DNA of 41,704 bases. Origin: a virus. A program made the translations under genes and the position numbers. How positions within the stretch are numbered: position 1 is the stretch's first letter; every line of letters starts with the position of its first letter. The DNA is taken from IMG/VR virus record IMGVR_UViG_3300045988_041287, positions 1 through 41,704 of that record; one strand, 5' to 3'. Shown here piece by piece: positions 3,271 through 40,553 of the stretch. Under the pieces are notes generated by a model. The model was given only the letters and a program-made list of their open reading frames with translations. It made no database searches and was not told the DNA's origin.

Positions 3271-3454
3271 CCTTCTTGCCCTCCTCATCCTTGAGAATAA
3301 CCATCGCGGAGTAATAATGTTCGTAGTATCTGCCATCAATCGCAGAGCTGTACTTAATATCCACCACGCGTTCCGGCGGGAAGTTCTCGATAGCATCGTT
3401 GAGTAACGTCTCAAGGCTGCCGATGCGGTCGCTCTCGATCAGAATTACCTTCAC
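3263..3454 (-). CDS. Cse60-like small protein
   Basis: MKVILIESDRIGSLETLLNDAIENFPPERVVDIKYSSAI...YSAMVILKDE matches the Cse60 pattern (MKVK.FD....DLE..VN.FL......IDIKY). Confidence 0.5.
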   Translation of the reverse strand: MKVILIESDRIGSLETLLNDAIENFPPERVVDIKYSSAIDGRYYEHYYSAMVILKDEEGKKDG

Positions 3455-3837
3455 GCCTTGTCCTCCATTTCCTGCATCGCCCGCTCCGCCTCCTCGCGGG
3501 TCAAAAAAGTGTTCTTTCCGAATCTATCCGGGCTAAACGTGCGCTCATTCGTATGCCCTGTTTTATCGACGTGCTCACTGTGAACCCATGAGATACCTGT
3601 GTCATCCACCGCGTACCCTACCACCGCAAATTCTAGAATCTGCTTGGCGTTTACGAAATAAACCGTATCCCCCACCTTGCACGGCAGCGCCACCTCCGCA
3701 ACGTCGGCGGCAGGCATCCGCCTGATTTTATTTCTGATCTCGTCGAGCAGCCGGTTTTGCGCCGGGCTTCGGCACGCGCCGTATTGACTTGCCACTGCTT
3801 TCATCGCAGCGTCCCGCCGGATATATTCGTCAGCCAT
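3451..3837 (-). CDS. Hypothetical protein, paralogue A (shared C-terminal module LPCKV...FLTREEAERAM)
   Basis: ORF track; C-terminal similarity to the product of 3830-4285. Confidence 0.65.
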   Translation of the reverse strand: MADEYIRRDAAMKAVASQYGACRSPAQNRLLDEIRNKIRRMPAADVAEVALPCKVGDTVYFVNAKQILEFAVVGYAVDDTGISWVHSEHVDKTGHTNERTFSPDRFGKNTFLTREEAERAMQEMEDKA

Positions 3838-4285
3838 TCTTTCGCGCCTCCATCGCCCGCTCGGCTTCGGCGCGCGTCAAAAATATGCTCTTCCCGATTG
3901 CATTTTTATCGAAAGCCGGACCGCCTGCCGTCTCGTAGATGACCTCGCGCACCGTGTGCTCATACACCCTCGCCCCGTCAGTCTCGTACACCTTGCACGG
4001 CAGCACCACGACGCGCCCGTCCTTGTCAGCCGCAGCCAGCTCCCGCAGGCGCTCCGGCGTAGTCCCCAGCGCCTGCGCCGCCAGCTTGATAAGCGCGTCC
4101 GGCGTAAATGCGCTTTTGATTGCCTCCTGGCTAAATTCCTTGTCCTCGTAGGCAGCGAGCTTATCCACGGCTTCGCCCGCTCTCCAACAGGTAGTACATA
4201 TCCCATCACATTCATTTTCCCTCAGATCTACGCAAGCCAGATAAGCCTCGCCGTCATCAATTCGCCTTTTTGTCAGTCGTTCCAT
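3830..4285 (-). CDS. Hypothetical protein, paralogue B, with a Cys-rich N-terminus
   Basis: ORF track; the C-terminus VVLPCKVYE...IFLTRAEAERAM parallels 3451-3837. Confidence 0.65.
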   Translation of the reverse strand: MERLTKRRIDDGEAYLACVDLRENECDGICTTCWRAGEAVDKLAAYEDKEFSQEAIKSAFTPDALIKLAAQALGTTPERLRELAAADKDGRVVVLPCKVYETDGARVYEHTVREVIYETAGGPAFDKNAIGKSIFLTRAEAERAMEARKNG

Positions 4286-4719: not shown

Positions 4720-5454
4720 AACATTCCCTCCTCGCAAATATCCACGATATGCTCGCACAATGCCGCAGGAATTATGGAGCGTTCTTTGCTTCCGCGAAGC
4801 CCTTGCGTTCCTGTCTTTGCACCTCTTGGGGCTGGCGTATGACACGGGTCTCCATTGTGGCACATCGGCTTAAATTTAGGATCAGGATGATTCGTCCAGA
4901 TGTCCGTTGGTTTCATCCTGTTGTCTCCATACTGACAATAAGTCACCGTGTATCGTGGCAAATCTTGCATCCATTCCATTTTGCGCATCCCGCCACGCGG
5001 ATTTTCGATAAACCAGTATCTCGGATGCAGCTCACGAATAAGCCCTAAGACGTGCTGATCTACCTTGTCACAGAATTTCGCGTAGTCGCTTACCGCATCT
5101 AGATTCCCCGTTTTCGGATTCTTGCGCCTATGATGAGAAATGGCGGCGATAGAAAACGTTGTACAATCTGGGCTTGCCCAGATGACATCCGGCTTCCCGA
5201 ATCGTTTTAAAACATCCTCCGCTGTTACCGTCAATACATCGGCATACAAATCTATTCTCCGTCCCGTCCGTGAATAAATTCCTCCGCCGCTGCGTCAAAG
5301 ATATTACCCAGCCGCCACGCATAAATGCAGTTTCCTCAAAGTGCTTATCCCACTCCACAGAGAACACTTTGTGCCCTCGCGCAGCAAATGCCTTGCCGAT
5401 GCTTCTTGTTCCCGCAAACAGTTCGAGTACCTTGAGTTTTTTCTCGTTGTTCAC
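4716..5454 (-). pseudogene. DNA (cytosine-5) methyltransferase disrupted by a 76-bp insertion
   Basis: The N-terminal fragment (5454-5332) carries motif I (KVLELFAGTRSIG). The C-terminal fragment (5255-4716) carries ASPDCTTFS (the PC motif) and ENPRG. The two frames differ by 1 nt. Deleting 5256-5331 gives the continuous sequence ...VEWDKHFEEIDLYADVLTVTAEDV... Confidence 0.8.
5256..5331. repeat. 76-bp insert inside the methyltransferase, copied from the giant gene (21400-21459 joined to 21556-21571)
   Basis: Manual alignment shows 1 mismatch (5287 c vs 21431 t) and a gc microhomology at the internal junction. A 96-bp stretch of the giant gene is absent from this copy. Confidence 0.85.
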
Positions 5455-5799: not shown

Positions 5800-6023
5800 G
5801 CTCTGCACCGCCTCGCCGTGCACGCGCCGTAGCTGTCTACCCTGCTCCAGTCCAGTCCCCAGTGCTCCAGCGCCGCCTTGATCGCCGCCTGCGGGCTGGG
5901 GGCGCGAACGCGCAGGACTGTGTTCCCGCGCGTCACCCACCATTCTGCCTTGCCCTTGTACTCCCCGGCGCAGACGGTGTCCTCCTGCCGGCGGAAGCCG
6001 CCCGCCTGATACCCGGCGATCAT
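5796..6023 (-). CDS. Hypothetical protein, 75 aa
   Basis: Frame trimmed to MIAGYQ, which has an ATGA overlap with the stop of the 3D-domain gene. Confidence 0.5.
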   Translation of the reverse strand: MIAGYQAGGFRRQEDTVCAGEYKGKAEWWVTRGNTVLRVRAPSPQAAIKAALEHWGLDWSRVDSYGACTARRCRA

Positions 6024-6655
6024 TCCGTCCACCATACCGTCGCCTCCCGTGCGCCCAGCTTCAGCGCCTCCTCGTGCGTCGCAACAGCCAGATCGACGTG
6101 CCCGCCCAGCACGGCGCTGCCCGTATCCTCCGCGATGTAGCTGTGCAGGATACCGTCCCCATAATCGACATAAATCTCCGCCCCCAGCGGGATCACGTTG
6201 GGATCGACCGCCGCCGACCGCCCCGCCGTCACGTCCGTGCCCGTCGCGGTCTTTCCCGTCCCGCCGCCGCAGATGTGCGGACGCTTTTCGCAGCAGTAAT
6301 ATGTAATGGTGCAGTTATGGACCACGCCGTCAAACCCGCGCAGCTCGTCCAGATCGTTCCGCCCCGTCTCCGGGTATTCATTTTCCAGCGGCACGATCTC
6401 ATACTCCAGCTCCCGCGCGCCCCCGCCCGCTCCTGTAGGGGCGGACGCCTCTGTCCGCCCGTCGGCTTCCCCCTTGAGGGGGAAGCTGTCAGCCGTAGGC
6501 TGACTGATGAGGGTGGCGTTCTCGTCTCTGAGCTGCTTCGCGTTTGCCGCCGCCCGCGCCGTCCCCAGCACCAGCAGCTCAAGCACCGCCAGCGCCAGCA
6601 CCACCATCAGCACAAACTCGCCGACCACCCGCAGCGTCTCACGTCTCTTTCCCAT
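6020..6655 (-). CDS. 3D-domain (MltA/RlpA-like double-psi barrel) cell-wall protein with an N-terminal TM anchor
   Basis: Trimmed to MGKRRETLRVVGEFVLMVVLALAVLELLVLG. The C-terminus CTITYYC...ICGGGTGKTATGTDV..GRSAAVDPNVIPLGAEIYV...AEDTGSAV.GGHVDL is a typical 3D domain. Confidence 0.75.
   Translation of the reverse strand: MGKRRETLRVVGEFVLMVVLALAVLELLVLGTARAAANAKQLRDENATLISQPTADSFPLKGEADGRTEASAPTGAGGGARELEYEIVPLENEYPETGRNDLDELRGFDGVVHNCTITYYCCEKRPHICGGGTGKTATGTDVTAGRSAAVDPNVIPLGAEIYVDYGDGILHSYIAEDTGSAVLGGHVDLAVATHEEALKLGAREATVWWTE
6455..6545. repeat. GC-rich hairpin element (A-type) in frame inside the 3D-domain gene
   Basis: ggcttcccccttgagggggaagc and gtcagccgtaggctgac hairpins, followed by ctgatgaggg ... 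cgcgtttg. About 94% identical to 7809-7899. Translated as ANAKQLRDENATLISQPTADSFPLKGEADGR. Confidence 0.85.
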
Positions 6656-6666
6656 CGTTCTCTCCT

Positions 6667-7194
6667 TTACTCCACGATCGCCAGCAGCAGCCTCCGCAGC
6701 TCGTCCGTCCCCGTCTCCGGGGCGATCAGCCCCACCAGCATAAACCCCGCCTTCGCCGCGATCATCTCCCGGCATCCCGCCGGAGCGCGCAGCGTCAGCT
6801 CCACGTTTTCATATTCCGCAAGGATCGGCGCGAGCAGCGCCCTGTCTGCCCAGCGTACCCCGACGCCCGGCACGACCAGCGGCATTAGCTCCCGACCCAT
6901 GTAGTTCACGCTCACGCTCTGCCGCACAGCAGCTTTTTCTCCGTCTGCCGTATCCAAAAAGCAGATAGAGGGCGGCGCTTCCCGCTCCCGAATGCGCATG
7001 GCGTCCTTCTGCTTGTCGTTCAGCTCCAGCAGGCTCGGCAGATTCTCCGCCCGCAAATGCGGCAGCCCATCCACCGGGTACAGCGCCCGCCCGTCCGTGA
7101 TCCACTGCTGCACGCACCCGGAGCGATCTGTGTAGTTCACCAGCTCTGCCCAGCCCTCCTGCTTGCAGAGCTGCGCGATCTTCTTGATCTTCAT
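6667..7194 (-). CDS. Hypothetical protein, 175 aa
   Basis: Frame trimmed to MKIKKIAQLCK, which has an ATGA overlap with the upstream ORF. Confidence 0.65.
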   Translation of the reverse strand: MKIKKIAQLCKQEGWAELVNYTDRSGCVQQWITDGRALYPVDGLPHLRAENLPSLLELNDKQKDAMRIREREAPPSICFLDTADGEKAAVRQSVSVNYMGRELMPLVVPGVGVRWADRALLAPILAEYENVELTLRAPAGCREMIAAKAGFMLVGLIAPETGTDELRRLLLAIVE

Positions 7195-7475
7195 TCCTCT
7201 CCGCGCTCCTTCCGCAGTGTCCCGACGTCGATCGCCACCGCCGTCGAAGCCGCCACGATCTGATCCGCGATCTCGCACCCCTTCTCCCCGATCACCGGGC
7301 GCATCGCCTGCGCGATCATCTGCATCGCCGCCACAAAGATCGGCAGATCGTCCCACATCGTCGCGTTGACCATCGCATTCAGAAATGCTCCATAGTGCGC
7401 AAGCCCCGCCTGCATCGCTTTGGCGGCAGCTTCGCGATCCTTCGCCTTGCAAATTCTCTCCGCGTAACTCATCAT
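7191..7475 (-). CDS. Hypothetical protein, 94 aa
   Basis: Trimmed to MMSYAERI, which has an AAAGGAG RBS. Confidence 0.6.
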   Translation of the reverse strand: MMSYAERICKAKDREAAAKAMQAGLAHYGAFLNAMVNATMWDDLPIFVAAMQMIAQAMRPVIGEKGCEIADQIVAASTAVAIDVGTLRKERGEE

Positions 7476-7486
7476 GTTTTCTCCTT

Positions 7487-7726
7487 TCACCACGGGTAGC
7501 TGATCGCATCCCGTACACTTTCAATGGGTACAGACAGATTCCGCAGCAGCCTCAGCGCCTTGTCCATGTACGCCGTCGGCTTGTCGAATACGCGGTAAAG
7601 CGTCTGCTGGCAGCACCCGGCGTATTCACACGCCTTGCTGATCGGCACGTTCTGCGCCGCGATCTCCCCGCGTATCATGCACCGCAGCTTGTAGTCCGTC
7701 CCGCGCTCCACGCGCTGCTTCGGCAT
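7487..7726 (-). CDS. Small putative DNA-binding (HTH) protein
   Basis: ORF track; the segment ISKACEYAGCCQQTLYRVF resembles an HTH. Confidence 0.5.
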   Translation of the reverse strand: MPKQRVERGTDYKLRCMIRGEIAAQNVPISKACEYAGCCQQTLYRVFDKPTAYMDKALRLLRNLSVPIESVRDAISYPW

Positions 7727-7745
7727 TTCCGTCTCTCCCCCCCCC

Positions 7746-8180
7746 TCACCAATTCACACACAATTCAAAGTCCGTGACCTCGAACCCATCCGCACCATCC
7801 CCGGCTTCCCGCCCATAGGCTTCCCCCTTGAGGGGGAAGCTGTCAGCCGCAGGCTGACTGATGAGGGTGGAGTTCTCGTCTCCGAGCTGCCCCGCGTTTC
7901 CGCCCTCGTCCAGATAGTTCCTCCCGAACTCCCGCACAAAGTCCGCAGTGCTCCATCCCATCCTCTCCATCGCCATCCGCTGCCCGTATTCGTGCAGCGC
8001 CTGCGCCGTTTCGCGGCAGCGGTGTGCCGCCCGCTTACCGCTGATGTGGCAGCTCCCGTGGCAAAGATCCACCACCAGCCCGAGCTTTTCGCTCTTCCGC
8101 CGGTTCGCCCCGCCAAAAATGTGGTGACGATCCAACGGCTCATCCGTCCCGTTCTTCCCGCACAGCCAGCACGTCCGCAT
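7746..8180 (-). CDS. HNH/zinc-finger nuclease-like protein
   Basis: CWLCG...LDRHHIFGGANRRKSEKLGLVVDLCHGSCH follows the pattern CxxC..HH..N..CxxxCH. Confidence 0.55.
   Translation of the reverse strand: MRTCWLCGKNGTDEPLDRHHIFGGANRRKSEKLGLVVDLCHGSCHISGKRAAHRCRETAQALHEYGQRMAMERMGWSTADFVREFGRNYLDEGGNAGQLGDENSTLISQPAADSFPLKGEAYGREAGDGADGFEVTDFELCVNW
7809..7899. repeat. GC-rich hairpin element (A-type) in frame inside the HNH-like gene
   Basis: Near-identical to 6455-6545. Translated as GNAGQLGDENSTLISQPAADSFPLKGEAYGR. Confidence 0.85.
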
Positions 8181-8317: not shown

Positions 8318-8496
8318 CCTTTTCACCTCGTTTGCCTTTCGTAGCTCAGAACTTTTTTGTTATTCATTTCATCCCTCGGCTATACGTTATCATAACTCAG
8401 CATCGTTGTCAAGCACATTTTTATTTCTAGGCTATACTTTTTGTTGACTTTCATCGCCTCGCGTGTTAATGTAGTGCCAGAAAGGTGGTGATCCCG
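8318..8496. promoter_or_regulatory. Divergent promoter/operator region of the lysis-lysogeny switch
   Basis: On the plus strand: TTGACT (8444-8449), 17 nt, TAATGT (8467-8472). On the minus strand: TTGACA (8412-8407). GGCTATAC occurs as a direct repeat at 8378-8385 and 8430-8437. Confidence 0.5.
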
Positions 8497-8880
8497 ATGG
8501 GCACGATCAGTGAGCGCATCGCATTTCTTATTAAAGACCAGCATGAAACGCGTACCTCGTTCGCGGAGAAAATCAACTTGAGCCAGCCGTTTGTTTCCGG
8601 CTTGTGCTCTGGCGCGAAGCAGCCCAGCGACCGCACGATCTCGGACATCTGCCGTGTGTTCGGTGTCTCGGTTGCTTGGCTTACAGATGGCGTCGGCGAG
8701 ATGTATGTCCGCCGCAGCGCCAATGAAGAGCTGGCGATCCTCGTCAACGATCTCATGTCCGATGCCGACGAATCCTTCCGCAAGCGGTTCGTTTCCCTCC
8801 TGCTTGCTCTCCCGCCGGAAAGCTGGGCAGCGATCGAGGATTTTGCGAAAAAATTGCAAAAAAACACCGTGGACGATTAA
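8497..8880 (+). CDS. XRE-family CI-like repressor (no S24 peptidase domain)
   Basis: MGTISERIAFLIKDQHETRTSFAEKINLSQPFVSGLCSGAKQPSDRTISDICRVFGVSVAWL is a classic HTH_3. It is transcribed divergently from the early operon. Confidence 0.8.
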   Translation: MGTISERIAFLIKDQHETRTSFAEKINLSQPFVSGLCSGAKQPSDRTISDICRVFGVSVAWLTDGVGEMYVRRSANEELAILVNDLMSDADESFRKRFVSLLLALPPESWAAIEDFAKKLQKNTVDD

Positions 8881-9000: not shown

Positions 9001-10584
9001 ATGGATTTTTTGACAGATTTCCTTCTGTATTTTTTTATCTCGTTTTGTTGCTACTTACTCGGTGCATTGTCACGTGAGCTTGGCACATTATGCCGCCGCG
9101 CATTCTTTGTTTCTCTGTATGACTGTTTATCCATCGCCTTTCTATTTCTCGGCTTTATCGTCTCTGTTCCCGTGTATCTCCTAACTTCCTGTGAATGCCG
9201 ACGCGCTTCTGCCCAGGCTGAAAAGCGTTCGCAAGCGGAGGTGCATCGTTTGCAGGCAGAAGCGCAGCACACCAAAGACCGCTTGGATGAATATGCCCGT
9301 ACCGAAAAATCCACCCGCGACAAAATTTTCACTGAAGCCTACAAAATCGGCTATGATGATGGGCATAGCAGTGTCGAAGAATATGAAGTAAAAGGTGCAT
9401 ATCGCAACGGTTACCAAGACGGTCACTGTGAATGCTTGTACCGCTGCCGAATGCAGGCGCAGCACTACATTGCGCACTTCCAGTCTACGCCCGCCTTCGA
9501 TGCCGTAAAATCCTACGACTTTTCTGCAAACCCCCGGCTCTATTCCGCCGCCTCTGAACCGATCCGCTACGCAGCCCCGTTTTCTCTTGCTGTCAAAACC
9601 TATGGGGAAGGCGGCATCGTCTACGACACCACGCTGTATTCCTGCACCTGTCCCGATTATCAGTTCCGAAAAGTCCCTTGCAAGCATATGTTTTACCTTG
9701 CTCTTGATTTTGGTCTGCTGGACACATTGGATCATGACGATCTGCGCGACGCGCTCGTAAAAATGCAGACGCAATTTTCCAAACTTCGCAAGCAGCAGGA
9801 GAAAACGACCCGCTCCATCCAGCGTCTCCATGATCTTCAGCAGAACGTCGCCAGCATCTCCGCCCCTGGCAGCTCTGCCATCGAAGTTCCCCGCAACACT
9901 GAGCTGCCTGTGCTCACCGCCAGCCAAGACCGAAAGCGCTGCAAAATGCTGTCCGATTATGAGTATAGTTCCTTGCCTCCTGCCGCACGCTATCAGCTCG
10001 CATTGGAATACGAGCTTGAGCGCAAGAAGAATCGCCCCGAAATTGGCAAAGCATTTGAGCGCTACATCGGATATTGCTGCGAGCAGCGGCAGTATGCCGT
10101 CGTATATAACGGTGCAACGGAGAAAAAGCACGACCTCGGACGCGATCTGATTGCCATCAGCCCCGACCGAAAGACCGTCTATGTGATCCAGTGCAAATAC
10201 TACGCAGCCGATAAAGAAGTCCACGAGAACGCCGTTATGCAGCTTTTCGGCAGCGTTTCCATGTTTGCCGCCACATACCCCGGCGTCTCCGTTTTTGGTG
10301 TCCTGGTCTCCTCCTGCCCGCTCTCAGTAGATGCAAAAAACTGCATTGGTCACTTCAACGCCCTTCGGTATTTTGAGAACATCCACGCCGACCTGCGTCA
10401 CTACCCCGTTGTGAAGTGTGCTACCTCTTCCTCTGGTGCAAAACATTTCTATTTGCCGTTTGATTCCTGCTATGATACCGTCGTCGCCGATCACTACGAA
10501 TTGACCGTTTCCGCCGCAATTTCAAAAGGCTTCATTCGTGCATTGAAGCCCGCAAAACCTGCTACGTCGAATCGGCATATTTAA
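9001..10584 (+). CDS. Membrane-anchored SWIM zinc-finger / Mrr-type (PD-(D/E)xK) nuclease-domain protein
   Basis: Two N-terminal TM helices and coiled coils. SWIM motif CTCPDYQFRKVPCKH at 9643-9687. Mrr_cat-like core GKAFERYIGY...GRDLIAISPDRKTVYVIQCKYY, with QCK at 10189-10197. Lower GC than the flanking sequence. Confidence 0.7.
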   Translation: MDFLTDFLLYFFISFCCYLLGALSRELGTLCRRAFFVSLYDCLSIAFLFLGFIVSVPVYLLTSCECRRASAQAEKRSQAEVHRLQAEAQHTKDRLDEYARTEKSTRDKIFTEAYKIGYDDGHSSVEEYEVKGAYRNGYQDGHCECLYRCRMQAQHYIAHFQSTPAFDAVKSYDFSANPRLYSAASEPIRYAAPFSLAVKTYGEGGIVYDTTLYSCTCPDYQFRKVPCKHMFYLALDFGLLDTLDHDDLRDALVKMQTQFSKLRKQQEKTTRSIQRLHDLQQNVASISAPGSSAIEVPRNTELPVLTASQDRKRCKMLSDYEYSSLPPAARYQLALEYELERKKNRPEIGKAFERYIGYCCEQRQYAVVYNGATEKKHDLGRDLIAISPDRKTVYVIQCKYYAADKEVHENAVMQLFGSVSMFAATYPGVSVFGVLVSSCPLSVDAKNCIGHFNALRYFENIHADLRHYPVVKCATSSSGAKHFYLPFDSCYDTVVADHYELTVSAAISKGFIRALKPAKPATSNRHI

Positions 10585-12960: not shown

Positions 12961-12984
12961 ATCCCCTGTATTTTCAACGTGTTT

Positions 12985-13025
12985 ACGGCTGCTCAATCAG
13001 GGTTCGAATCCCTCATCCCCTGCCA
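12985..13025 (+). other. Putative attP core: the 3' end of a tRNA gene (T-arm, acceptor strand and CCA), not a complete tRNA
   Basis: cagGGTTCGAATCCctcatcccctgCCA ends at 13025. No complementary 5' acceptor strand or anticodon arm lies upstream. Confidence 0.6.
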
Positions 13026-13032
13026 TAGCACG

Positions 13033-13066
13033 AAAAACCAGCAATCCGTTGCGATTGCTGGTTTTT
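13033..13066. terminator. Bidirectional hairpin terminator next to the tRNA-like core
   Basis: 14-bp stem aaaaaccagcaatc/gattgctggttttt, loop cgttgc. Confidence 0.7.
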
Positions 13067-13139
13067 CCTTATATGTCAATGTTTTCCCAGCTTTTTAGCA
13101 TTATGTTTTCTCATAAAATACTCTGCATTCGCACCCGCA

Positions 13140-13986: not shown

Positions 13987-14035
13987 ACTCTACCTCCGTT
14001 TCGTGCGGGGCGGCTTGTGCCGCCCCTTTTGTGTG

Positions 14036-14720: not shown

Positions 14721-14722
14721 GT

Positions 14723-14968: not shown

Positions 14969-14972
14969 CCCA

Positions 14973-23200: not shown

Positions 23201-26200
23201 TCTCCCGCGCGCTTCTCCGCCAGCGCTCCATCGGCACACGCAGTGCGTCGTAGTCCGACTTTGCCTGATATACATCCAGAATGCTTCGCGCGTTGTCCAT
23301 ATCCTGCACAGCCTCCGGCGCAATCTCGCCGCGCAGCAGCCGCCACACGACCCTCTCGTCCTCGTCGGTCAGCAGGTTTCTGTTCTTCACCCGCTCGTAG
23401 TTCTTCCGCGCCTTGCGCAGGTCCTCTCCCAGCTTCAGCGCTTCCTCTTCGCTCTGCGGGGTGTACTGCATCACCTTTCTGCGCTCCGCCGCCTCAACGT
23501 ATCGGCGCACCGTCCGCATCACCGACGTCATATTCTCTACTGAACGTTCAAAGTCATTCTTCGCCCACCGCTTATAGTCCCCGCCGTCGCCCTTGTGCGC
23601 CTCGTCCAGCGTCTGCTTCGTGATCTGGATCTTGTTCGCCACCTCGATCATGCGCATCAGCTGATCCGCCGGGTTCATGATTGCCTCCGGGAACAGCCCC
23701 GGCGCTTCGTCGTGGAGTTCTCCGTACAGCGTGTCGATGCCGATGCCCTCGTTGTTGAGTAATATCCTCCCGCGCACCGCCCGCCGGAACTGCTCAAGGT
23801 CTGCAAACTCCGCCCGCACCTCCGGCGTCACCCGGATGCCCGTCTTGAGCAGCTTGACCTTGATATGCTTGAACGTGTCGTAGAACTCGCGGTCCTCCTC
23901 AATGCCAGCGTCGTAGGCGTCCTCAAAGCTCTCGTTGATCGTCTCCTGCGCGATCTTGCCGGTTTTCAGGAACTCGTTCATCATGCCCTGCACGGCAGGC
24001 TTCAGCACCTCGCGCTTTGCCTTGCCCGGAATGCTCATCGCGTTCGCCGCCTGCCGCACCGCGCTGTTCACCGCCTGATCCACAAACGCCCGCGCCTTCC
24101 CCGGCAGCTTGTCGTAGCTGTACACCTTCGGCTTCTCTCCCGTCTCCGAAGCCTCCCCTTGGTGACCAAGGGGAGGTGGCGCGGAGCGACGGAGGGGATC
24201 AGAGCTTCCCCCGTTCTGCTCTTCCGCCACGTTTGCTTCCGCGTTTGCATCCCGCGTCTCCGGCGAATATTTCCCCTTGACATTTTCCTCTACACTCTGT
24301 ACAATGTCCCCAAGTCGATAGTTTTCTGCGCGCCCGGCCTTGTAGCCAAAACCGTTCAGAAAGCTGTCGGCTTTTTTGTCGTCGTAGATCCGCAGTTCCT
24401 TTCCCTCTTTGATCTGATTCGCGATCCACTCTTTCGGATTGTCCAGACCGTAAATGCTCTTGATACGCGTTACCGTTTCACCGTCAAGCTCTGCGTCTTT
24501 CAGTACACCCACCAGCAGCGGCTTTCCGTCCCCGTCGATCTCATCGGTCAGCACCCCTACAGAGTTTCCGATCTCAAAGCTCAAGACCGGCTGCTGCATG
24601 ATGGATTCCAGATTGTTGAACACACGCTGCGGCACATTGTGCTTTTCGCTCTTTGACTTCTTGTAGGTCGTCTGCGACATCACGAGCGGCTGCCCGGTGA
24701 TACCGAGCGCATCATATTCCCTCGCCAGTGTTCCGAAATAGAACTCGTCATGCTTGGTCAGTCCATTCGCGCGATACTGCTTGAATTGCTCCTTTACGCT
24801 TTCTCCGCGTGTATTGTTGATACTGTACGCCTCCGGCGGACCTCTGGTCTGTGCCGGTTTTTTTGTGCGCTGGCTCGCCGCGCGGTCTGCTTCTGTGCGC
24901 ACGCGCTCCTGGAGCTTGTCCGCGCCCAAGCCCATGCGGTTGATCCCCGCGTAGGCGTCGCACACGATCTCGTCCAGATACGCGCTCATGTCCTCGCCTG
25001 TGTAGCAGCCCTCGTATGCCTCGCAGTATTTCCGCGCCAGCTTATCCCGCTGCTCCCGCGAAAGCCCCAGCGCGTCGATCAGGCGCTCCCGCAGCCCCGG
25101 TTCTGCTTCCAGCCGCAGGTGCATCGCCTCGTGCTCGGCGGTCTTGATAACGCCGTCCTTCGCGTCGATGGTGAGCCATACGGTCGTTCCCTGTGTAACG
25201 CCCTGTACGCTCATCTCTCTGCCGCCTGCGGTCCTGATCCTGATCGACCCGCTCACAAGACGCACGTCGTCCGCGCCCGCATCGGTAAGGATTTGCTTCG
25301 CCTGCTTGAGGGCGGGATATTCCTGCACCGTCTCCTCCGGCACGCGGTAGAACATTTTCTGATCCGAGCCGTTTTCGATCCCGTCCGCCTTTGGGCTTAA
25401 CCGTTCCGCTTTCGCAGTGCCGAGGACACTTTGGATTCTAAGGCTTTCCTTGACGCCGAATCCGCCTGCGGATTCTTTCTCTGCTCCTCCTGCGCCTCTG
25501 CCCACGCGTCCAGACGGCTCATCGGAATCCATACCTGCATCCCGTTCGCCGCCGTTACCAATACCCGCTGTTCCATTTTCTTCTCCTTTCCGCCTGCCTT
25601 CCTTGTAGGCTTCCTGCAATACCTCGTCCGCAATGCCCCTCTGAGAATCCTCCCGCTTGAATTTCCAGCCGAACCGTCCCTTCCCGTAGGCGACACGCAC
25701 CGCCTCTGCATACGTCGGGATGTCCATCTGCACGCGGTCGTTTGCATCAAAATACCCGGAGATAAAGTATTGCGTCATCGCAAAGCCGTATTCGCGCTGC
25801 TTTGCGATCCGCTCCAGCTCCGCCGCGTCCTGCTCCTCTGCCGCTCTCCTTGCCGCAAGCTCGGCGGCGCTCTCCTGCGCCTGTGCGGACTGCTCTGTCT
25901 CGCGCAGCTCCTTGTCGGATAGGGTCTGCGTCTCGCGTCCCATCTCCTTCTGCTGCCGCTCGTTCTCCAGCCGCGCCCGCGCAACGTTCGCCACGTCCTG
26001 CATATCCCGCTCCTTCGCTTCCAGATATGCCTCGTCCTGCGCGATCTGCTCCCGCAGCTCCTGCACCCGCGCATTTATGGCTTCCCCTTTGGGGGAAGCT
26101 GTCGGCGCAGCCGACTGATGAGGGGCAGCGTTGTCGGCTGCAGCCGTTACCGCGTTTGCTTCCAGCCCCCGCAGCTCCGCCGTCCGCGCATCGTACTCCT

Positions 26201-28514
26201 TTAGCCGAGCCTTATACTCGCGCAGCGTGTCCCCGACCTTGCCGAGCAGCTTGTCGCCCTTCACGCGCCCGCGTACATCCTCCTGCCCCGCCTGCCGCAA
26301 GACCGTCCGCACCTCCGGCTCGTTGTTTGCACTCTCCAAAGCCTCCCCTTGGTGACCAAGGGGAGGTGGCGCGGAGCGCCGGAAGGGATCAGAACTACCC
26401 CCGTTCTGAGCTGCCGCCACGTCTGCCTCCAGCTCCATATTGTCCGGCAGCCCGTCCCCGTCCTCGTCGATCACGTCCATATTGGACGGAATGTCGTCCT
26501 CCACGTCCATATTCTCCGGCACGTCGCTCTCGCTTGCTTCCCGCTGTACCTCCTCCACGGTCCTCTCCGCCGCGTCGCTCTCTCCGGCTTTGTCCAGCGC
26601 GTCGATCAAGCGCCCGAAATCCTGCATATCCGGCGCGCGTCCGTATGCCAGCTTGTCGCTGATCGTATCGCGCGCCGCCTGGACGTCCGCGTTTGTGCTG
26701 CCGTCCGTCTCCCGGATCAGGATCTTCGCGTACTGCTTCATGTATCGGTCCTGCCGTGCCTGTGACAGCCCGCTCACCATCCCGGCAGCATCGCCCAGCA
26801 CGCCGACGAATACGCCGCCGAGGAATGACATCCCAAGGTCCTCCGCCGTCACTGACCCCTCCAGCGTCCCGTCCAGCACTAGGCTCTGGAACGTCGGCTC
26901 AAGCAGCTCCGCCACGACCTCCTCCAGACCCTCCGATACCAGCCCGAACGCCTTGCTGTCCAGCACCCGCAGGAGCGTCTTATTTTTCAGCTTCGCCGCC
27001 GCCCGGTTGATAAGACCCACGTCCTCGTCATACACCGGGTTTCCGCCGAACAGCTTTTCGGAGAATACTTCCACGGCGGCGTTCTCCAAGCCGATCAAAA
27101 TCGCCTCGCCGTCCGTCGCCCCTGCATTCTTCGCATCCACCGCCGCGTTGCCGCCCGCTCTGGACGCCATGGACGTCAGGGTGGATAGATTCGTCGTCTC
27201 CTTCATCGGATTCACGCCGCTCATCCCGGCAAGCCCCGCGTCCAAAAGCATCGACCCGACCGACGGCAGGTTCTCCACCACGAACTTCCCGACGTCGCTT
27301 CTGTCCTTCGTCGCCCGCTCCATAATGCGGCTGTACTCGTCCTGCCATGCCTGCGCGCCCGACCAGTCGATGTCTGTCGCCAGCTTGTCCGCCAGAGCGT
27401 TCAGGCTGTCCCGGTACGCCTGCCCGAAAATGCCGCCCAGCACCTTGCTCTTTGCAAGGTCACGCAGCGCCCACGCCGCCGCCTTGTTGATTCCTGCTTC
27501 CGCGACCGCGTGCGTCGCCTCCTGACCGCCCAGCCACGACGCCGAGCTGCCGCTGATGAACGCATCCGCCGCCGCCTCGCCAAAGCCCACATAGTCCCCC
27601 GTGAGCTTTGGATTTTTCAGCAGCGCCCGGAAGTCCGAAAGGTCCTTGCCGGTCACGCCCATCTCGTCGAACCTCTGCCGCAGCGCGTCCTTTTCCTCCC
27701 GGTCCTCGTCAGCGTCCAGTTCAAAATAGCGCGCCACGTCCTCCCGAATGCCCAGATTGTCCAGTCTGGCGTTCTGTGCCTGATAGCGCGTCTGCTCGTC
27801 TGTGGTGGTCGTTACGCCGTTCAGATAGTTTTGATACGTCCCGTATTTCTTCTGCATGGCAGTGGAGCGGTTGAACTCCTGCTCCGTTACCTTGCCTTCC
27901 CGCTGCGCCTGTTCCTGCTTCGCTCGGCGCGCATTTTCCATCGCCTCGTCGTACCCGGCGTACACGCCGCGCAAATAGTTCTGGTAGCTGCCGTATTTCT
28001 GCTGCATCGCCGTGGAGCGGTTAAATTCCTGTTCCGATACCTTGTCCGAGGAAAACCTGCCTCGCGGCGTTGTGTCCTGCTTCTGCCCCAGCTCTGCCCG
28101 GTACTGCTCCTCCGTCGTCCCGCGCATCGCCCTGTACCGCTGCTGCGTGATGCTGTCCACCGCCGCCTTGTACTGCTCAAACGTCACCCCGCCCTGCGCC
28201 TTGTAGCGCGAGAGCGTCGGGCTGTATGTCCCCCGTGCAGCGCTTGGCTCTCCCTCTGGGATAGCTGTCCGCCCGCCGGATGTGTACGTTTTGACCCACG
28301 GCGTGCTTGTGCCCCGCCCATCCTGTTCCTTGGCGGTTTTCATGATGGCGGTCCAGTCAAAGCGCCCCGCCTGCTCTGTCTGCTGCTGTCGCTGGGTATA
28401 CGGCTCTACCGCCCGGCTGCCGGAGCTGTTGCCGTAAAGCGCCTGATTGTCGCTTCTGCGCGCCCGCTCCATCACCTGCTTCCAGTTGATATTGCTTTCT
28501 GTTTTCTTCGCCAT
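20226..28514 (-). CDS. Giant (2,762 aa) polyvalent-type virion/ejection protein
   Basis: A single uninterrupted ORF. Contains HEAMH (HExxH, nt 25119-25133), a MuF-C/PBECR-like segment (KHNVPQRVFNNLESIMQQPVLSF...), internal duplications and long helical regions. No tail tube or sheath genes are nearby. Confidence 0.8.
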   Translation of the reverse strand: MAKKTESNINWKQVMERARRSDNQALYGNSSGSRAVEPYTQRQQQTEQAGRFDWTAIMKTAKEQDGRGTSTPWVKTYTSGGRTAIPEGEPSAARGTYSPTLSRYKAQGGVTFEQYKAAVDSITQQRYRAMRGTTEEQYRAELGQKQDTTPRGRFSSDKVSEQEFNRSTAMQQKYGSYQNYLRGVYAGYDEAMENARRAKQEQAQREGKVTEQEFNRSTAMQKKYGTYQNYLNGVTTTTDEQTRYQAQNARLDNLGIREDVARYFELDADEDREEKDALRQRFDEMGVTGKDLSDFRALLKNPKLTGDYVGFGEAAADAFISGSSASWLGGQEATHAVAEAGINKAAAWALRDLAKSKVLGGIFGQAYRDSLNALADKLATDIDWSGAQAWQDEYSRIMERATKDRSDVGKFVVENLPSVGSMLLDAGLAGMSGVNPMKETTNLSTLTSMASRAGGNAAVDAKNAGATDGEAILIGLENAAVEVFSEKLFGGNPVYDEDVGLINRAAAKLKNKTLLRVLDSKAFGLVSEGLEEVVAELLEPTFQSLVLDGTLEGSVTAEDLGMSFLGGVFVGVLGDAAGMVSGLSQARQDRYMKQYAKILIRETDGSTNADVQAARDTISDKLAYGRAPDMQDFGRLIDALDKAGESDAAERTVEEVQREASESDVPENMDVEDDIPSNMDVIDEDGDGLPDNMELEADVAAAQNGGSSDPFRRSAPPPLGHQGEALESANNEPEVRTVLRQAGQEDVRGRVKGDKLLGKVGDTLREYKARLKEYDARTAELRGLEANAVTAAADNAAPHQSAAPTASPKGEAINARVQELREQIAQDEAYLEAKERDMQDVANVARARLENERQQKEMGRETQTLSDKELRETEQSAQAQESAAELAARRAAEEQDAAELERIAKQREYGFAMTQYFISGYFDANDRVQMDIPTYAEAVRVAYGKGRFGWKFKREDSQRGIADEVLQEAYKEGRRKGEENGTAGIGNGGERDAGMDSDEPSGRVGRGAGGAEKESAGGFGVKESLRIQSVLGTAKAERLSPKADGIENGSDQKMFYRVPEETVQEYPALKQAKQILTDAGADDVRLVSGSIRIRTAGGREMSVQGVTQGTTVWLTIDAKDGVIKTAEHEAMHLRLEAEPGLRERLIDALGLSREQRDKLARKYCEAYEGCYTGEDMSAYLDEIVCDAYAGINRMGLGADKLQERVRTEADRAASQRTKKPAQTRGPPEAYSINNTRGESVKEQFKQYRANGLTKHDEFYFGTLAREYDALGITGQPLVMSQTTYKKSKSEKHNVPQRVFNNLESIMQQPVLSFEIGNSVGVLTDEIDGDGKPLLVGVLKDAELDGETVTRIKSIYGLDNPKEWIANQIKEGKELRIYDDKKADSFLNGFGYKAGRAENYRLGDIVQSVEENVKGKYSPETRDANAEANVAEEQNGGSSDPLRRSAPPPLGHQGEASETGEKPKVYSYDKLPGKARAFVDQAVNSAVRQAANAMSIPGKAKREVLKPAVQGMMNEFLKTGKIAQETINESFEDAYDAGIEEDREFYDTFKHIKVKLLKTGIRVTPEVRAEFADLEQFRRAVRGRILLNNEGIGIDTLYGELHDEAPGLFPEAIMNPADQLMRMIEVANKIQITKQTLDEAHKGDGGDYKRWAKNDFERSVENMTSVMRTVRRYVEAAERRKVMQYTPQSEEEALKLGEDLRKARKNYERVKNRNLLTDEDERVVWRLLRGEIAPEAVQDMDNARSILDVYQAKSDYDALRVPMERWRRSAREKNREYAREHLTNIESTKDKKGFFLQRETMTRNTRDVFAREDAERINNDYFAQVRRDEAKATRFKNEMRGRVKAMNMSREKRTGDLVSEAHAVQLYGEAMNNIEMLKKKPMDAKRDGKTLAEWEAVVRELWKTSPSLDKTKIESAVAEFRKIYDETLEAMNRKRIENGYEPVPRRSGYFPHFQPGQTDGILAMVANALGVNGDVTELPTTIAGRTYMFRPGIKYFGNAEERLGFNTAYDAVEGFDRYIEGAASVIYQTDNIQRLRALASEIRYMASSEGVQQQVDAIRADTELSQYERDKKVEEILEKAKFQLSGYVNELEEYTNLLAGKKSRTDRDMERDHGRKIYNVMQKTIGRVGANMVALNLRSAATNFAPLVQTAMQHGGLQTFAAMWQTVRNVRDRDGIVERSAFLTNRRGSDPLVNGRMGKISDAAGAVMNVVDNFTAEAVVRVRYNDNLRRGLNEVDAMDEADQYAADVMAARSKGEMPTRYESKNPFTKMLTQFQLEVNNLPRNVFKDTAYYMSKDHPDWSNSRFVAEYAWRLLKYCIYAWLFNEAFESIFGGRVLPDPINMANDFVGDTTGKRLGNIFDAATEEFIHGRDGEWIETTNKKRLSAALTGLGEAILDDVPGTQVLALVTDDLDGGRLPVTQAIPNVLTIINAATDKDMANDVRWEKIGAEVAKPVTYLFAPLGGGAVKKTAQGIYAVVQGGSFKKNKDGELLMQYPVFNETTGDKILNTIKVSIAGKTATSEAKKWVDNDFSNLNMKETNAYLAMSAADVKQREAWKLIQAMKDVDVPEGASEREAKLAALNAYDIADEAKAMYYYNVIASEKEQAMLQRLLNENADVGAYLEYRQALPGADGWKDAEGNTVSGSKKSELYDLLDSYDFTPEQKDAIAGESYKLTGFEPWTEQGKSLREAAMTGKNVTQVVRELKKAGYTNGEISQAITALCRQDFREASERERIDLRAHLATVYAMLGKDRKKALEKIDEWAQ
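21400..21571. repeat. Source region in the giant gene for the 76-bp methyltransferase insert
   Basis: 21400-21459 and 21556-21571 match 5256-5331. This region encodes ...KYCIYAWLFNEAF...GNIFDAATEEFIHGRDGE. Confidence 0.85.
24149..24248. repeat. GC-rich hairpin element (B-type) in frame in the giant gene
   Basis: cctccccttggtgaccaaggggagg and ggcgcggagcg(a)cc hairpins, ending in ccgcgtttgc. Translated as ANAEANVAEEQNGGSSDPLRRSAPPPLGHQGEASE. Confidence 0.85.
26079..26159. repeat. GC-rich hairpin element (A-type variant) in frame in the giant gene
   Basis: gcttcccctttgggggaagc and gtcggcgcagccgac hairpins (compensatory changes relative to 6455/7809), then tgatgagggg ... cgcgtttgc. Translated as ANAVTAAADNAAPHQSAAPTASPKGEA. 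Confidence 0.8.
26339..26430. repeat. GC-rich hairpin element (B-type) in frame in the giant gene
   Basis: About 89% identical to 24149-24240. Translated as EADVAAAQNGGSSDPFRRSAPPPLGHQGEALE. Confidence 0.85.
27811..28045. repeat. Internal ~85-bp duplication in the giant gene, two copies about 150 bp apart
   Basis: Encodes KV(S/T)EQEFNRSTAMQ(Q/K)KYG(S/T)YQNYL twice. Confidence 0.8.
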
Positions 28515-36027: not shown

Positions 36028-36174
36028 GCTATCACCGCACCCACGGCTTCCCCCTTGAGGGGGAAGCTGTCCGCGCAGCGCCCGCACCATCTCTTGCCTT
36101 CCCCTTGGGGGGAAGGTGGCGCGAAGCGCCGGATGAGGGGAAGGGTTGCTGTCTCTGCCCTGCCCCGCGTTTGC
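36028..36174. repeat. Composite intergenic hairpin element (an A-type unit nested in a B-type unit) abutting the prp stop codon
   Basis: 36028-36041 plus 36089-36174 parallel 38432-38527. The extra 47 bp at 36042-36088 carries ggcttcccccttgagggggaagc and ends in a second copy of CCGCACC; the two CCGCACC copies are at 36035-36041 and 36082-36088. Confidence 0.8.
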
Positions 36175-36485
36175 TACTCCCTCGCAAACCGCACATTCTG
36201 TGGATACTCATGCGCCACCATCTGCATCCCCAGCAGTGCCGTGTCCCACATCGCCCGCACCACCCGCTCATGCTTCGGCGCGCACGCAATGGTGATGTCT
36301 CCGGGCTGCATATCCACCACCGGCTCTGCCCGCAGCAGCCCCTCGCTTTCCGCTCTCAGGATCATCCCACCCAGCGCGTAGGAGAGGATCGTCACCGCCG
36401 CGCAGACAATGTCCTGCCCCGCCGGAGCGTATCCCGCGTGCCCTGTGATCCGCAGGCTGTAGCCTTTACACTGGATGCTTATCAT
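36174..36485 (-). CDS. prp: Prp-family (DUF464, ribosomal-processing) cysteine protease homologue
   Basis: MISIQCKGYSLRITGHAGYAPAGQDIVCAAVTIL matches the hallmark GHA......G.DIVCAAVS. Confidence 0.75.
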   Translation of the reverse strand: MISIQCKGYSLRITGHAGYAPAGQDIVCAAVTILSYALGGMILRAESEGLLRAEPVVDMQPGDITIACAPKHERVVRAMWDTALLGMQMVAHEYPQNVRFARE

Positions 36486-38431: not shown

Positions 38432-38527
38432 CTATCGCCGCACCCCTTGCCTTCCCCTCGGGGGGAAGGTGGCGCGAAGCGCCGGATGAGGGGAAGCGTC
38501 GTTGTTTCTGATCTGTTCCGCGTTTGC
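38432..38527. repeat. Intergenic hairpin element (B-type) abutting the terL stop codon
   Basis: ccttcccctcggggggaagg and ggcgcgaagcgcc hairpins, then ggatgagggg ... ccgcgtttgc, ending at the TAG of terL. Confidence 0.85.
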
Positions 38528-39879
38528 TATCCCCCAAACTGATCCAGCGGGTCATTCAGCAGCACCCGCCGCGCCACCGGGCGCATCGCCTTGATCGGTC
38601 GGCTCATGCAAAAATACCGTACCTCGTCGCACGCATGATCCTCCATCGTCGTATCCAGATCCTCGACGTGCGTCTTGGAGTACATCATCATCGGCATCGT
38701 GCGGATAATGGCGTCGCAGCCTTTGAAAAAATACATCCGCGCGTAGCCGCCCTCGTCAAATTGCAGCCGGTAATGCACTTGCATCCAGCCAGGTATCCGG
38801 GCGTTGTCGCCCTTGGAAAAGTACACCCCGTACCGCGCCGCCGTCTGCGCGATGCTCTCGCCGTGCGATGCGTCCCAGATCGCGGGGTCAGCCACGCCCT
38901 GTATCTCCTTGCCCCGCAGCCACGGGTGTTCCCGCTCTGTTCTGCGTATCTCTTCAAACTGCCGGTCCGGCGACCACTTTACGCCCTCGTTCGGCTCGCC
39001 TGTCCAGCCGTAAAGCTCCAGAACGCGGTACAGCACGCCGTCGTAATCCACCGCCCACCAGGCGCAGGAAAACGGCTTTCCGTAGCCGAAATCGTAGCTC
39101 CTGTAGATTCTCCATCCCGCGTCCGGCACAAACGGCGCGATGACGTGCGTAAATCTCCTGTCCTCGTAGTGCGCCGGGTCGTCGCGGAACTCCTCGAAGA
39201 ACTGCCCCTCGAATACGTCCCAGCGCCCTTCCAGCCACGCCGCCCGCTGCGCCGGCGGCAGGCTCTTTAGGTTGCTCACATACTCCGGCTGCGCCTGCAT
39301 GAGCGCCTTGTTGTCCGTCACGAGTGCCTGGATAAAGCTGTAATCCTCCGGCTTCTCCTCGCCCTCGAAGCGGCGGTCGATGAAAAGGCGCTTGAAATAC
39401 CCGTGGCTCGGACCGCCGGGGTTGAGCGTGTAGTACGTCCGCTTCGGGAAATTGTTCACGCCGCGCACCGTGGCGTTGATAAGCCTGATCCACTGCTCCT
39501 GGAGCTGCCCCGCCTCGTCGAAGAAGATCACGTCGTATTCCTGCCCCTGATACTGCGCCACATCGCCGTCATTGCGGCAGTACCCAAGCATTATTCGCGA
39601 CCCATTGCCAAATGTGAACACTTTGCTCGTCTGGTTGTATTGCGCCACGCCGTGCAAAAGCTGCATCAGCGGCAGCACATGGTTGTTATACAGCTCCGGG
39701 TACGTCTTGCGCACAATGAGCACCTTGATCCCCGCCCATGCACCGCAGAGTAAAAACGCCTTGATGCGCACCGCCCAGCTCTTCCCACCGCCGCGCGCGC
39801 CGCCGTATGCCACATGGCGGTGCGTGTCCGTCAAAAATTGCCGCTGCTTGTCGCTGGGATTGATCTTGATCGTCCTCAT
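38527..39879 (-). CDS. terL: Terminase large subunit
   Basis: Walker A YGGARGGGKSWA; 450 aa; followed by the portal gene. Confidence 0.9.
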   Translation of the reverse strand: MRTIKINPSDKQRQFLTDTHRHVAYGGARGGGKSWAVRIKAFLLCGAWAGIKVLIVRKTYPELYNNHVLPLMQLLHGVAQYNQTSKVFTFGNGSRIMLGYCRNDGDVAQYQGQEYDVIFFDEAGQLQEQWIRLINATVRGVNNFPKRTYYTLNPGGPSHGYFKRLFIDRRFEGEEKPEDYSFIQALVTDNKALMQAQPEYVSNLKSLPPAQRAAWLEGRWDVFEGQFFEEFRDDPAHYEDRRFTHVIAPFVPDAGWRIYRSYDFGYGKPFSCAWWAVDYDGVLYRVLELYGWTGEPNEGVKWSPDRQFEEIRRTEREHPWLRGKEIQGVADPAIWDASHGESIAQTAARYGVYFSKGDNARIPGWMQVHYRLQFDEGGYARMYFFKGCDAIIRTMPMMMYSKTHVEDLDTTMEDHACDEVRYFCMSRPIKAMRPVARRVLLNDPLDQFGG

Positions 39880-40444: not shown

Positions 40445-40553
40445 TGAAACCGTTGGTATGACTGGCTTTGCGCCATTTCTTCCAAATTCCAGAAAACGCA
40501 GATACGCCGACCGGCGGCGCTGAAGCTCTCAGCGTCGCCCCCTTTTTGCCCGC

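Follow-up and report, generated by a model that had tools for sequence, protein, structure and literature searches.

Two unrelated genes in a 41,704-nt virus record (IMG/VR record IMGVR_UViG_3300045988_041287, positions 1 to 41,704; hereafter the window) share, in frame, a hairpin-rich segment of about 90 bp, and we found that this segment is an insertion relative to the orthologous genes. Its explanation that we favour, with a probability of roughly 0.6, is that it represents a combination of palindromic modules of the repetitive extragenic palindrome (REP) and bacterial interspersed mosaic element (BIME) type, which are found in gut Oscillospiraceae and other Clostridia as well as in other phyla and which have invaded this phage and its relatives.

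A preliminary description of the DNA, made from the letters alone, had put the identity of segments 6455-6545 and 7809-7899 at about 94%. A repeat search of the window bore out the near-identity, although the figure was slightly high: the segments are 92% identical (84/91 nt, seven differences). Both hairpins and the CTGATGAGGGTGG tail are present in both copies as claimed, the first hairpin being GGCTTCCCCC-TTGA-GGGGGAAGC and the second GTCAGCC-G(T/C)A-GGCTGAC, followed by TGATGAGGGTGG. Both copies are read in the same frame as quoted, giving ..NAKQLRDENATLISQPTADSFPLKGEADGR.. and ..NAGQLGDENSTLISQPAADSFPLKGEAYGR.. on the - strand, and outside the segment the two genes have nothing in common, one of them encoding a Pfam 3D domain and the other matching only phrog_7566. 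The shared segment is thus real and its first reading was essentially right. In copy 1, hairpin 1 starts at ~6465 and reads GCTTCCCCC-TTGA-GGGGGAAGC, followed by a T and by hairpin 2, GTCAGCC-GTA-GGCTGAC; the 3' part consists of the tail TGATGAGG and then an extension ending in CGCGTTTGC, and the - strand reading within the 3D-domain protein is ANAKQLRDENATLISQPTADSFPLKGEADGR. For copy 1, the similarity to other loci continues for another ~25 nt and reaches a GTAG-tagged hairpin (6435-6460) that encodes ..GRTEASAPTG.. on the - strand.

The pattern describing the structural core matched the window five times, compared with 0.00 matches expected from 100 shuffles. Two independent nhmmer profiles, one built for the long form and one for the core, each recovered exactly eight copies, all on the + strand, while the matches on the - strand are only the palindromic hairpin 1 matching itself. 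The local genes of the copies are on the - strand and the elements are therefore antisense to them, in agreement with the earlier count of eight copies in one orientation relative to transcription. Copies 1-5 are in frame and spread over three proteins, and copies 6-8 are intergenic or partial (Table 1). By identity the copies pair up, 3 with 5 (90%) and 7 with 8 (85%) in addition to 1 with 2 (92%). Copy 7 starts precisely at the stop codon of the Prp protease gene and copy 8 at that of the large terminase gene, in both cases as TAG-CAAACGCGG on the sense strand.

Inside the two proteins, the element occupies a linker. The phrog_7566 profile (96 positions) matches residues 1-90 of the 144-aa protein and the 3D-domain profiles start after residue 113 of the other, beyond the element, so that the likeness is not part of a longer shared protein domain. 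The element-coded residues are predicted to be disordered in both proteins, AlphaFold2 assigning a predicted local distance difference test (pLDDT) score below 50 to residues 39-100 in the 3D protein and 95-134 in the 144-aa protein and ~80-97 to the flanking domains, in line with the linker position first proposed. The label "HNH-like" given earlier to the 144-aa protein was not upheld, as the protein has no Pfam match and no PDB fold match.

Comparison with relatives confirms that the element is an insertion. The core of the phrog_7566 family is ~90 aa long and many homologues end there; others (P0027, P0028, P0032, and P0033) continue through a short linker straight into the conserved tail FEVTDFELCVNW without the element. 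Relatives of the 144-aa protein with 70-95% identity carry other variants in other frames at the same linker (e.g., ..EALIPSGASSASSPWSPRE.. and ..SSGAARHLPPEGKARG..), holding 1-3 units and up to three hairpin-1 units, and one orthologue holds the exact variant of the window's 3D gene. Among relatives of the 3D protein, P0212, P0216, P0219, P0222, and P0225 lack the element, P0138 and P0142 have the variant found in the window's 2,762-aa giant protein, and P0146 and P0153 have two units. The comparison proposed in the preliminary description thus turned up element-free orthologues of both genes, and across the relatives the element variants are read in all three frames, producing unrelated peptides at the same site.

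The variant, its frame, and the number of copies are polymorphic even among near-identical phages, and new modules nest in old ones. An insertion site that is empty in the window (~40543) is filled by an 80-nt element in L292, the surrounding sequence of which is 95-99% identical to the window, and in L291 the same 80-nt element has another insert, of 52 nt, within its hairpin 1; the insertion is without target-site duplication, as none is visible in this one clean empty/filled pair. The L017 orthologue of copy 5 holds a GTAG-tagged palindrome of ~75 nt within the 3' arm of its hairpin 1. The stretch of copy 6 is missing from L087 (95-97% identity to the window), L290-L292 have occupied sites where the window is empty, and a distant relative with the same architecture (L293, 55% identity) has zero elements. 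Some homology breaks coincide with the elements. Blocks of 95-100% identity between the window and L017 stop at 26332 and 24266, both of them element edges, and the tract around copy 3 is ~100% identical to L017 while both of its flanks are divergent or unrelated; similarly, homology between the window and L087 breaks at the copy 6-7 cluster, and L290 has an element where the window has two extra genes.

The constraint acts on the structure of the nucleic acid and not on the peptide: the stems of hairpin 2 covary, and hairpin 1 and the tail keep their sequence. Defining +u as the unit strand equal to the + strand of the window, the core consists of hairpin 1, (C/G)CTTCCCC-loop-GGGGAAG(G/C), an invariant T, hairpin 2, and the tail (G/T)GATGAGG (GATGAGGG). 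Hairpin 1 is conserved in sequence, with one compensatory variant, CCTTCTCCC/GGGAGAAGG. For hairpin 2 we collected 136 distinct versions, which contain 705 Watson–Crick pairs, 6 G–T pairs, and 4 A–C pairs and have GAA, GCA, GTA, or GGA, that is, a GNA triloop, in 73 of the 136. In an alignment of 54 units, 94.7% of the hairpin-2 cells pair and 73 cells have changed on both sides; none of 500 shuffles reached the observed pairing, and slid controls gave 24-44%. These pair counts cover hairpin 2 only, since the 5' arm of hairpin 1 was wrongly placed in the MAFFT alignment. The seven differences between copies 1 and 2 (G/A, C/A, T/C, TT/CC) all change an amino acid, and none of them falls within the 32 stem positions. 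As RNA, the hairpins fold stably on the sense strand.

The units form two subtypes that co-vary at three positions, "CT" with GCTTCCCC / AAGC / C-TGATGAGG vs. "GG" with CCTTCCCC / AAGG / C-GGATGAGG. In the clade of this phage, a long form of ~100 nt consists of the core (~50 nt) and then an extension of ~35 nt that ends in CGCGTTTGC, the end of which pairs with the tail to make a third hairpin. The extension and the GTAG module each occur elsewhere without the core, and the GTAG REP, hairpin 1, hairpin 2 with its tail, and the extension combine variously. The "~90-bp element" of the preliminary description is therefore a discrete DNA insertion in linkers but not a single unit: with separable modules, it is one combination out of a mosaic, as in BIMEs.

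The core is found well beyond this phage and is plentiful in contigs of gut viruses and in genomes of Oscillospiraceae and other Clostridia. We searched its pattern in IMG/VR (>118 loci) and in species-representative genomes (>120 loci), where we estimate ~1,000 chance matches in 596 Gb. In most of the matches listed, hairpin 2 is palindromic and hairpin 1 has its upstream arm as well; the matches include metagenome-assembled genomes (MAGs) and isolates of Oscillospiraceae and other Clostridia (Pseudoflavonifractor, Gemmiger, Intestinimonas, Butyrivibrio), isolates of Bradyrhizobium, Xanthomonas, and Luteimonas, and MAGs of Planctomycetota, Elusimicrobia, Myxococcota, and Chloroflexota. A unit of Pseudoflavonifractor phocaeensis (L167) has a hairpin 2 identical to that of window copy 2. 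A search of the host chromosome, suggested earlier, was thus borne out for the core, which is present in bacterial chromosomes; the ~100-nt long form was found only in the phage clade. The long-form pattern GATGAGGGN{18,40}CGCGTTTGC had 51 matches in IMG/VR, few enough to be mostly chance, and the two that were inspected, L029 and L087 (one contig, a near-identical relative), were already known as relatives. In the INPHARED phage collection, the core is present only in unannotated human-faecal contigs, and these alone resemble the window. The scan against Rfam gave no matches at gathering thresholds, and even with E ≤ 5 as the cut-off none of the copies had one. A literature search on the exact sequences retrieved no paper with the core motif, and the literature on REPs in Oscillospiraceae and on rhizobial mosaic elements gave nothing describing the two-hairpin motif.

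Units are arranged as solo units, in tandem, or as convergent doublets; the latter have gaps of 15-70 nt, usually join a "GG" and a "CT" subtype, and are found in other loci and not in the window, where all eight copies are direct. A Christensenella MAG (L189:1169-1347) has four two-hairpin units in direct succession, head to tail and without spacers, at a period of 49 nt. In a MAG of uncultured Clostridia (L166:200-2100), an AT-rich stretch contains at least five units, each followed by the same promoter-like TTGCAA..17..TATAAT, the repeats being ~360-860 nt long.

The GTAG-tagged module adjoining copy 1 can be linked to a known type of system. Hairpins headed by GTAGGGGC are common in the unit-bearing loci, and GTAG REPs found no more than 150 nt from a unit share its orientation at ratios of 12:0 (viral contigs) and 25:15 (genomes). 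In an Oscillospiraceae MAG (L124), a 168-aa open reading frame (ORF) at 6555-7058 has HUH and tyrosine motifs and resembles the tyrosine transposases associated with REPs (RAYTs), matching NCBIfam REP_Tyr_transpos with an E-value of 7.5e-17 (61.6 bits, below the curated cut-off of 80) and Pfam Y1_Tnp weakly (E 4.8e-4, below cut-off). It is flanked by at least five GTAGGGGCGAT..ATCGCCC REPs, and one more is in frame inside it. We sampled 80 homologues of the L124 protein from metagenomes (L294-L373, gut and rumen Clostridia) and found GTAGGGGCG REPs in 75 of the 80 loci; 98 REPs were inside the ORF and 24 within 300 nt of it, totaling 122, in comparison with 6 in 297 kb of far flank. The module at 6435-6460 has the GTAG tag and the same REP head (GTAGGGGCG) and is therefore part of a genuine REP/RAYT system from gut Clostridia. 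RAYTs are already known in Clostridia (PMC5581495), and in one subclass of TnpA-REP, REPs have been described inside the transposase gene (PMC6006769). The intragenic REPs of our sample recur in frame at two places, one on the sense strand (~+115 to +133) and the other on the antisense strand (~+283).

The orientation of the units differs between phages and bacteria. Solo units of viral contigs are antisense (relative to +u) to the local genes at a ratio of 111:24, and units between codirectional genes at 67:20; within ORFs the ratio is 37:1 with loose criteria and 15:0 with strict ones, requiring at least 50 open codons and a positive coding score on both sides. In bacterial genomes the orientation is about even (22:20). 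In the orientation used in the window, all three frames are open in 105 of 126 "GG" units, whereas in the opposite orientation they are so in none because the TGA of GATGAGG is always present; stop codons thus explain part of the bias within ORFs. Transcription and replication cannot be separated here, since nearly all genes lie on one strand, the GC skew is ~-0.2 genome-wide, and only two units on the minority strand are informative. The GNA loops and GTAG tags are on the C-rich + strand, the template strand for the local genes, whereas the conserved GC(A/G)AA junction, which abuts most copies, is found on the G-rich sense strand, 5' of the element, and these strand signals therefore point to opposite strands. 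In the lysogeny module of a related prophage, where the genes are reversed, a doublet of units (L239:2030-2190) has one arm on the same absolute strand as all other copies of that prophage, a lone indication that the genome, and not transcription, may set the orientation.

Under the REP/BIME explanation, the modules would be copied as single-stranded DNA hairpins by a host-encoded enzyme of the HUH/tyrosine type acting in trans; no such enzyme was among the phage ORFs scanned. Copies would persist only at near-neutral places, just after stop codons or in intrinsically disordered linkers, and the surviving orientation would be the one with a sense strand free of stop codons, which would account for the copies read in frame and for some of the strand bias. 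The repeats may incidentally offer stretches of homology at the borders of domains and genes, the places at which recombination breakpoints are seen among relatives.

Several of our results weigh against this explanation. There is no GT[AG]G tag in the two-hairpin core, which has variable bases before hairpin 1 and an invariant T before hairpin 2, and only two such units were found in 380 kb around the 80 RAYT genes, which is no enrichment. No Y1 transposase other than that of L124 was found in ~2 Mb of unit-bearing loci, when ~13,000 six-frame ORFs were compared with RayT and IS200 TnpA query sequences; the wider unit pairs (L217, L118, and L024) enclose only ordinary genes and no transposase or autonomous element. 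With no transposase tied to the two-hairpin units, we infer their transposition from polymorphism only, and for this a single clean empty/filled pair was compared. Since classical REPs are lineage specific, it is unusual to see near-identical cores in distant phyla, and this hints at a conserved partner or function. Finally, the intergenic strand bias (111:24) goes beyond avoidance of stop codons and makes an RNA-level or replication-linked constraint possible, the gene calls behind these ratios coming from a simple, crude codon-usage caller trained on the window.

Another, bolder reading is one that we regard as doubtful. The two-hairpin core, that is, the CCTTCCCC/GGGGAAGG hairpin, the invariant T, the GNA-capped hairpin of free sequence, and the GGATGAGGG tail, could be an uncatalogued pan-bacterial recognition module for a single-strand-specific enzyme or a conserved factor, distinct from RAYT/GTAG-REP; in gut phages it would have become a strand-locked, frame-compatible joint within genes that drives the shuffling of domains and modules. 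A further possibility is that phages retain the shared 50-100-bp modules at gene and domain borders as linkers for frame-safe exchange with one another. The homology breaks of the window at element edges relative to L017, the conserved tract around copy 3 amid divergent flanks, the break relative to L087, and the replacement of two extra genes in L290 are all consistent with this, as are the pairs 1/2, 3/5, and 7/8, which resemble intragenomic conversion, and the orthologue of the 144-aa protein carrying the 3D-gene variant. However, only a handful of junctions were inspected, without statistics against random breakpoints, many breakpoints lie elsewhere, and breakpoints are expected passively at any repeat and need not reflect a selected function; we consider retention for exchange unlikely.

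About equally improbable, in our judgment, is a cis-acting RNA element, in which the mRNA hairpins (CCCUCAUC, hairpin 2', and hairpin 1') would stabilize or process polycistronic transcripts or pause ribosomes, for example after a membrane anchor or between domains, and would be kept by the phages for that role. The antisense bias of solo and intergenic viral units, the start of intergenic copies right at stop codons, and the stable hairpins on the sense strand would be expected of such an element. Against this, Rfam gave no match at either threshold, there is no excess of G–U over A–C on either strand (6 vs. 4), the preferred GNA triloops are on the strand antisense to the mRNA, and orientation is balanced in bacterial genomes; moreover, the intergenic copies have no terminator- or promoter-like features and close relatives manage without particular copies. 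The shared frame and similar peptides of copies 1 and 2 might suggest that a linker or peptide motif is shared and under selection for its amino acid sequence, but with unrelated peptides from all three frames in relatives, three noncoding copies, only nonsynonymous differences (7/7) between copies 1 and 2, and predicted disorder of the segment, this is very hard to sustain. An assembly artefact or chimera would be conceivable for a circular assembly of metagenomic type that has a terminal repeat of 75 nt; the copies are not identical to one another, those in the two genes differing at seven positions, and the same gene and element arrangements recur in dozens of independent ENA, Logan, and IMG/VR assemblies, leaving this a negligible chance.

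Two other candidates were rejected. Diversity-generating retroelement repeats do not agree with the differences, which are not adenine specific, and no reverse transcriptase was among the 27 ORFs scanned with Pfam (some small ORFs being left out). A hammerhead ribozyme was suggested by CUGAUGAG, but most units have GGAUGAGG instead of CUGAUGA and no Rfam model matches.

The coordinates of the copies, their host genes, and other features are collected in Table 1, in which genes were assigned by Pfam and PHROG scans of the window ORFs. An exact direct repeat of 75 nt at the two ends (1-75 = 41630-41704) indicates a circular assembly and thus a complete phage genome of ~41.6 kb. The virion genes, the P22-type portal, and the lysogeny block together indicate a temperate podovirus-like phage; a related prophage is found in a 114-kb metagenomic contig beside a LacI-family gene.

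Table 1. Copies of the element, the genes that carry them, and other features of the window
Feature	Position	Strand	Context
GTAG-tagged REP module adjoining copy 1	6435..6460	+	GTAG-GGGCGGAC-GCCTCT-GTCCGCCC
Copy 1, long form, "CT" subtype	6447..6555	+	In frame in 3D-domain protein
Copy 2, long form, "CT" subtype	7803..7914	+	In frame in C-terminal disordered tail of 144-aa zinc-ribbon-like protein (phrog_7566)
Copy 3, divergent subtype, hairpin 1 CCTCCCCTTGG-TGA-CCAAGGGGAGG	24134..24248	+	In frame in 2762-aa protein, directly after MuF_C domain
Copy 4, "CT" subtype	26073..26167	+	In frame in giant protein (..APHQSAAPTASPKGEA..)
Copy 5, 90% identical to copy 3	26323..26439	+	In frame in giant protein
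Copy 6, partial (hairpin 1 and truncated hairpin 2)	36030..36080	+	Intergenic
Copy 7, long form, "GG" subtype, CCTTCCCC-TTGG-GGGGAAGG T GGCGC-GAA-GCGCC GGATGAGG	36081..36184	+	Intergenic
Copy 8, 85% identical to copy 7	38432..38538	+	Intergenic, between large terminase and portal
Empty insertion site	40538..40548 (~40543)		~10 nt after stop codon; filled in L292 and L291
Host gene 1, membrane-anchored 3D-domain (lytic transglycosylase-like) protein	6020..6655	-	Element between N-terminal helix and 3D domain
Host gene 2, 144-aa Cys/His-rich protein, phrog_7566	7746..8180	-	Element between conserved core (residues 1-94) and conserved tail GFEVTDFELCVNW
MuF_C-containing protein, 2762 aa, polyvalent virion-type	20226-28514	-	Carries copies 3, 4, and 5 in frame
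Capsid protein	33740-35020	-	Pfam/PHROG
Prp protease	36174-36485	-	Pfam/PHROG
P22-type portal	36482-38413	-	Pfam/PHROG
Large terminase	38527-39879	-	Pfam/PHROG
Internal virion protein			Pfam/PHROG
Fibre proteins, collagen-repeat and BspA-LRR			Pfam/PHROG
Lysogeny block, CI-like repressor	8485-8880	+	Pfam/PHROG
Lysogeny block, Mrr-type nuclease	9001-10584	+	Pfam/PHROG
Lysogeny block, integrase	11917-12960	+	Pfam/PHROG

The window has further repeats and irregular genes. A 517-aa protein (18247-19800), presumably a tail fibre, has collagen-like Gly-X-Y triplets at 18825-19569, visible as a 9-nt period in the DNA. A 66-nt segment occurs twice with 95% identity (5250-5315 and 21394-21459), the second time in frame in the giant protein (..RLGNIFDAATEEFIHGRDGEW..) and the first time inside a C5 DNA methyltransferase gene, the reading frame of which shifts across the segment. 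The N-terminal part of the methyltransferase is at 5454-5128 and the C-terminal part at 5249-4716, so the gene looks interrupted or frameshifted; relatives have an intact protein of 307 aa (L290). The neighbouring small genes 3451-3837 and 3830-4285 share a 51-nt stretch with 80% identity (3471-3521 vs. 3847-3897) and are probably tandem paralogues. The + strand ORFs 12926-15073 and 14907-16301 have no Pfam match, the codon-usage score favours the row of - strand genes at 13178-16462 over them, and relatives have an amidase and small genes at the place of 12926-16301; in a GC-rich genome such as this, both are likely to be spurious antisense ORFs. At 14651-14756, a perfect GC-rich hairpin with A-runs and T-runs on either side on both strands resembles a bidirectional intrinsic terminator and is a weak match to the Rfam family Leu_leader.

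Palindromes of the kind known from bacterial chromosomes appear to colonize temperate phages and to settle inside proteins without destroying them, and part of the "linker" sequence of gut-phage proteins may be selfish DNA and not evolved protein. Such repeats give rise to false protein similarity between unrelated genes and to false small ORFs in annotation. They also mark hypervariable points prone to recombination, which could account for the domain-level mosaicism of proteins. The partner enzyme of the core, once found, would extend the REP/RAYT paradigm, and the RAYT genes of gut Clostridia, with their own in-frame REPs at two fixed positions, provide a tractable test system.

Elements of the IS200/IS605 group, such as IS608 and ISDra2, use hairpins, are strand specific, and insert without duplication beside a short conserved sequence. 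The units resemble IS200/IS605-derived elements in their hairpins, the lack of duplication, the GC(A/G)AA abutting most copies, and the uniform orientation along the replicon, but have no associated TnpA or TnpB, and the target rule here rests on one clean site and on the conservation of junctions. Miniature inverted-repeat transposable elements (Correia/NEMIS, ERIC, and Coxiella QMITEs; PMC10969869, PMC5896051) are likewise small and nonautonomous, can make in-frame fusions, and fold as RNA. Our units differ in that no target-site duplication is seen in the clean pair, solo units have no terminal inverted repeats, and no related DDE transposase was seen.

Parallels are also found in REPs, BIMEs, and REPINs with their RAYTs (PMC3733652, PMC6006769, PMC5581495, PMC3116915). 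Shared features are GC-rich hairpins with a conserved head and covarying stems, occurrence as solo units, clusters, and inverted doublets, a location mostly just downstream of genes and sometimes within them, and the absence of target duplication; the variously combined modules show a BIME-like mosaic, and the module at 6435-6460 has the defining GTAG tag of the RAYT-linked family. The two-hairpin core, in contrast, is untagged and not enriched beside RAYT genes, is a fixed pair of one constant and one variable hairpin with the GATGAGGG tail, and has a sequence common to distant phyla, whereas classical REPs are restricted to lineages. Palindromes are also tolerated in coding regions in Xanthomonas and others, where different REPs occupy about the same recB site in orthologues (Di Nocera et al. 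2013, PMC3733652), but those are single hairpins with GTAG or CGTC tags in chromosomal repair genes, whereas here the carrier is a phage and 5 of the 8 copies are intragenic.

Rickettsia palindromic elements, ~100-150 bp long and found in frame in unrelated genes (Ogata et al. 2000, 2002, summarized in PMC10969869), are similar short palindromic selfish repeats at fold-compatible sites, with several families per genome and an added peptide without evident function. Their in-frame insertion at permissive sites is paralleled here by five copies in three proteins, with element-free orthologues and pLDDT below 50. They differ in their host, an obligate intracellular alphaproteobacterium instead of a temperate phage of gut Clostridia, and in their length, the units here having a 50-nt core or a ~100-nt long form; in our case, moreover, the same site is reoccupied by other variants in other frames and modules nest. 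Given the different taxa and element lengths, we treat the Rickettsia elements as an analogue and do not count our element as one of them. As far as we found, what is new in comparison with all of these systems is the phage setting, the repeated reoccupation and nesting at the same linkers, and an uncatalogued two-hairpin core common to distant phyla.

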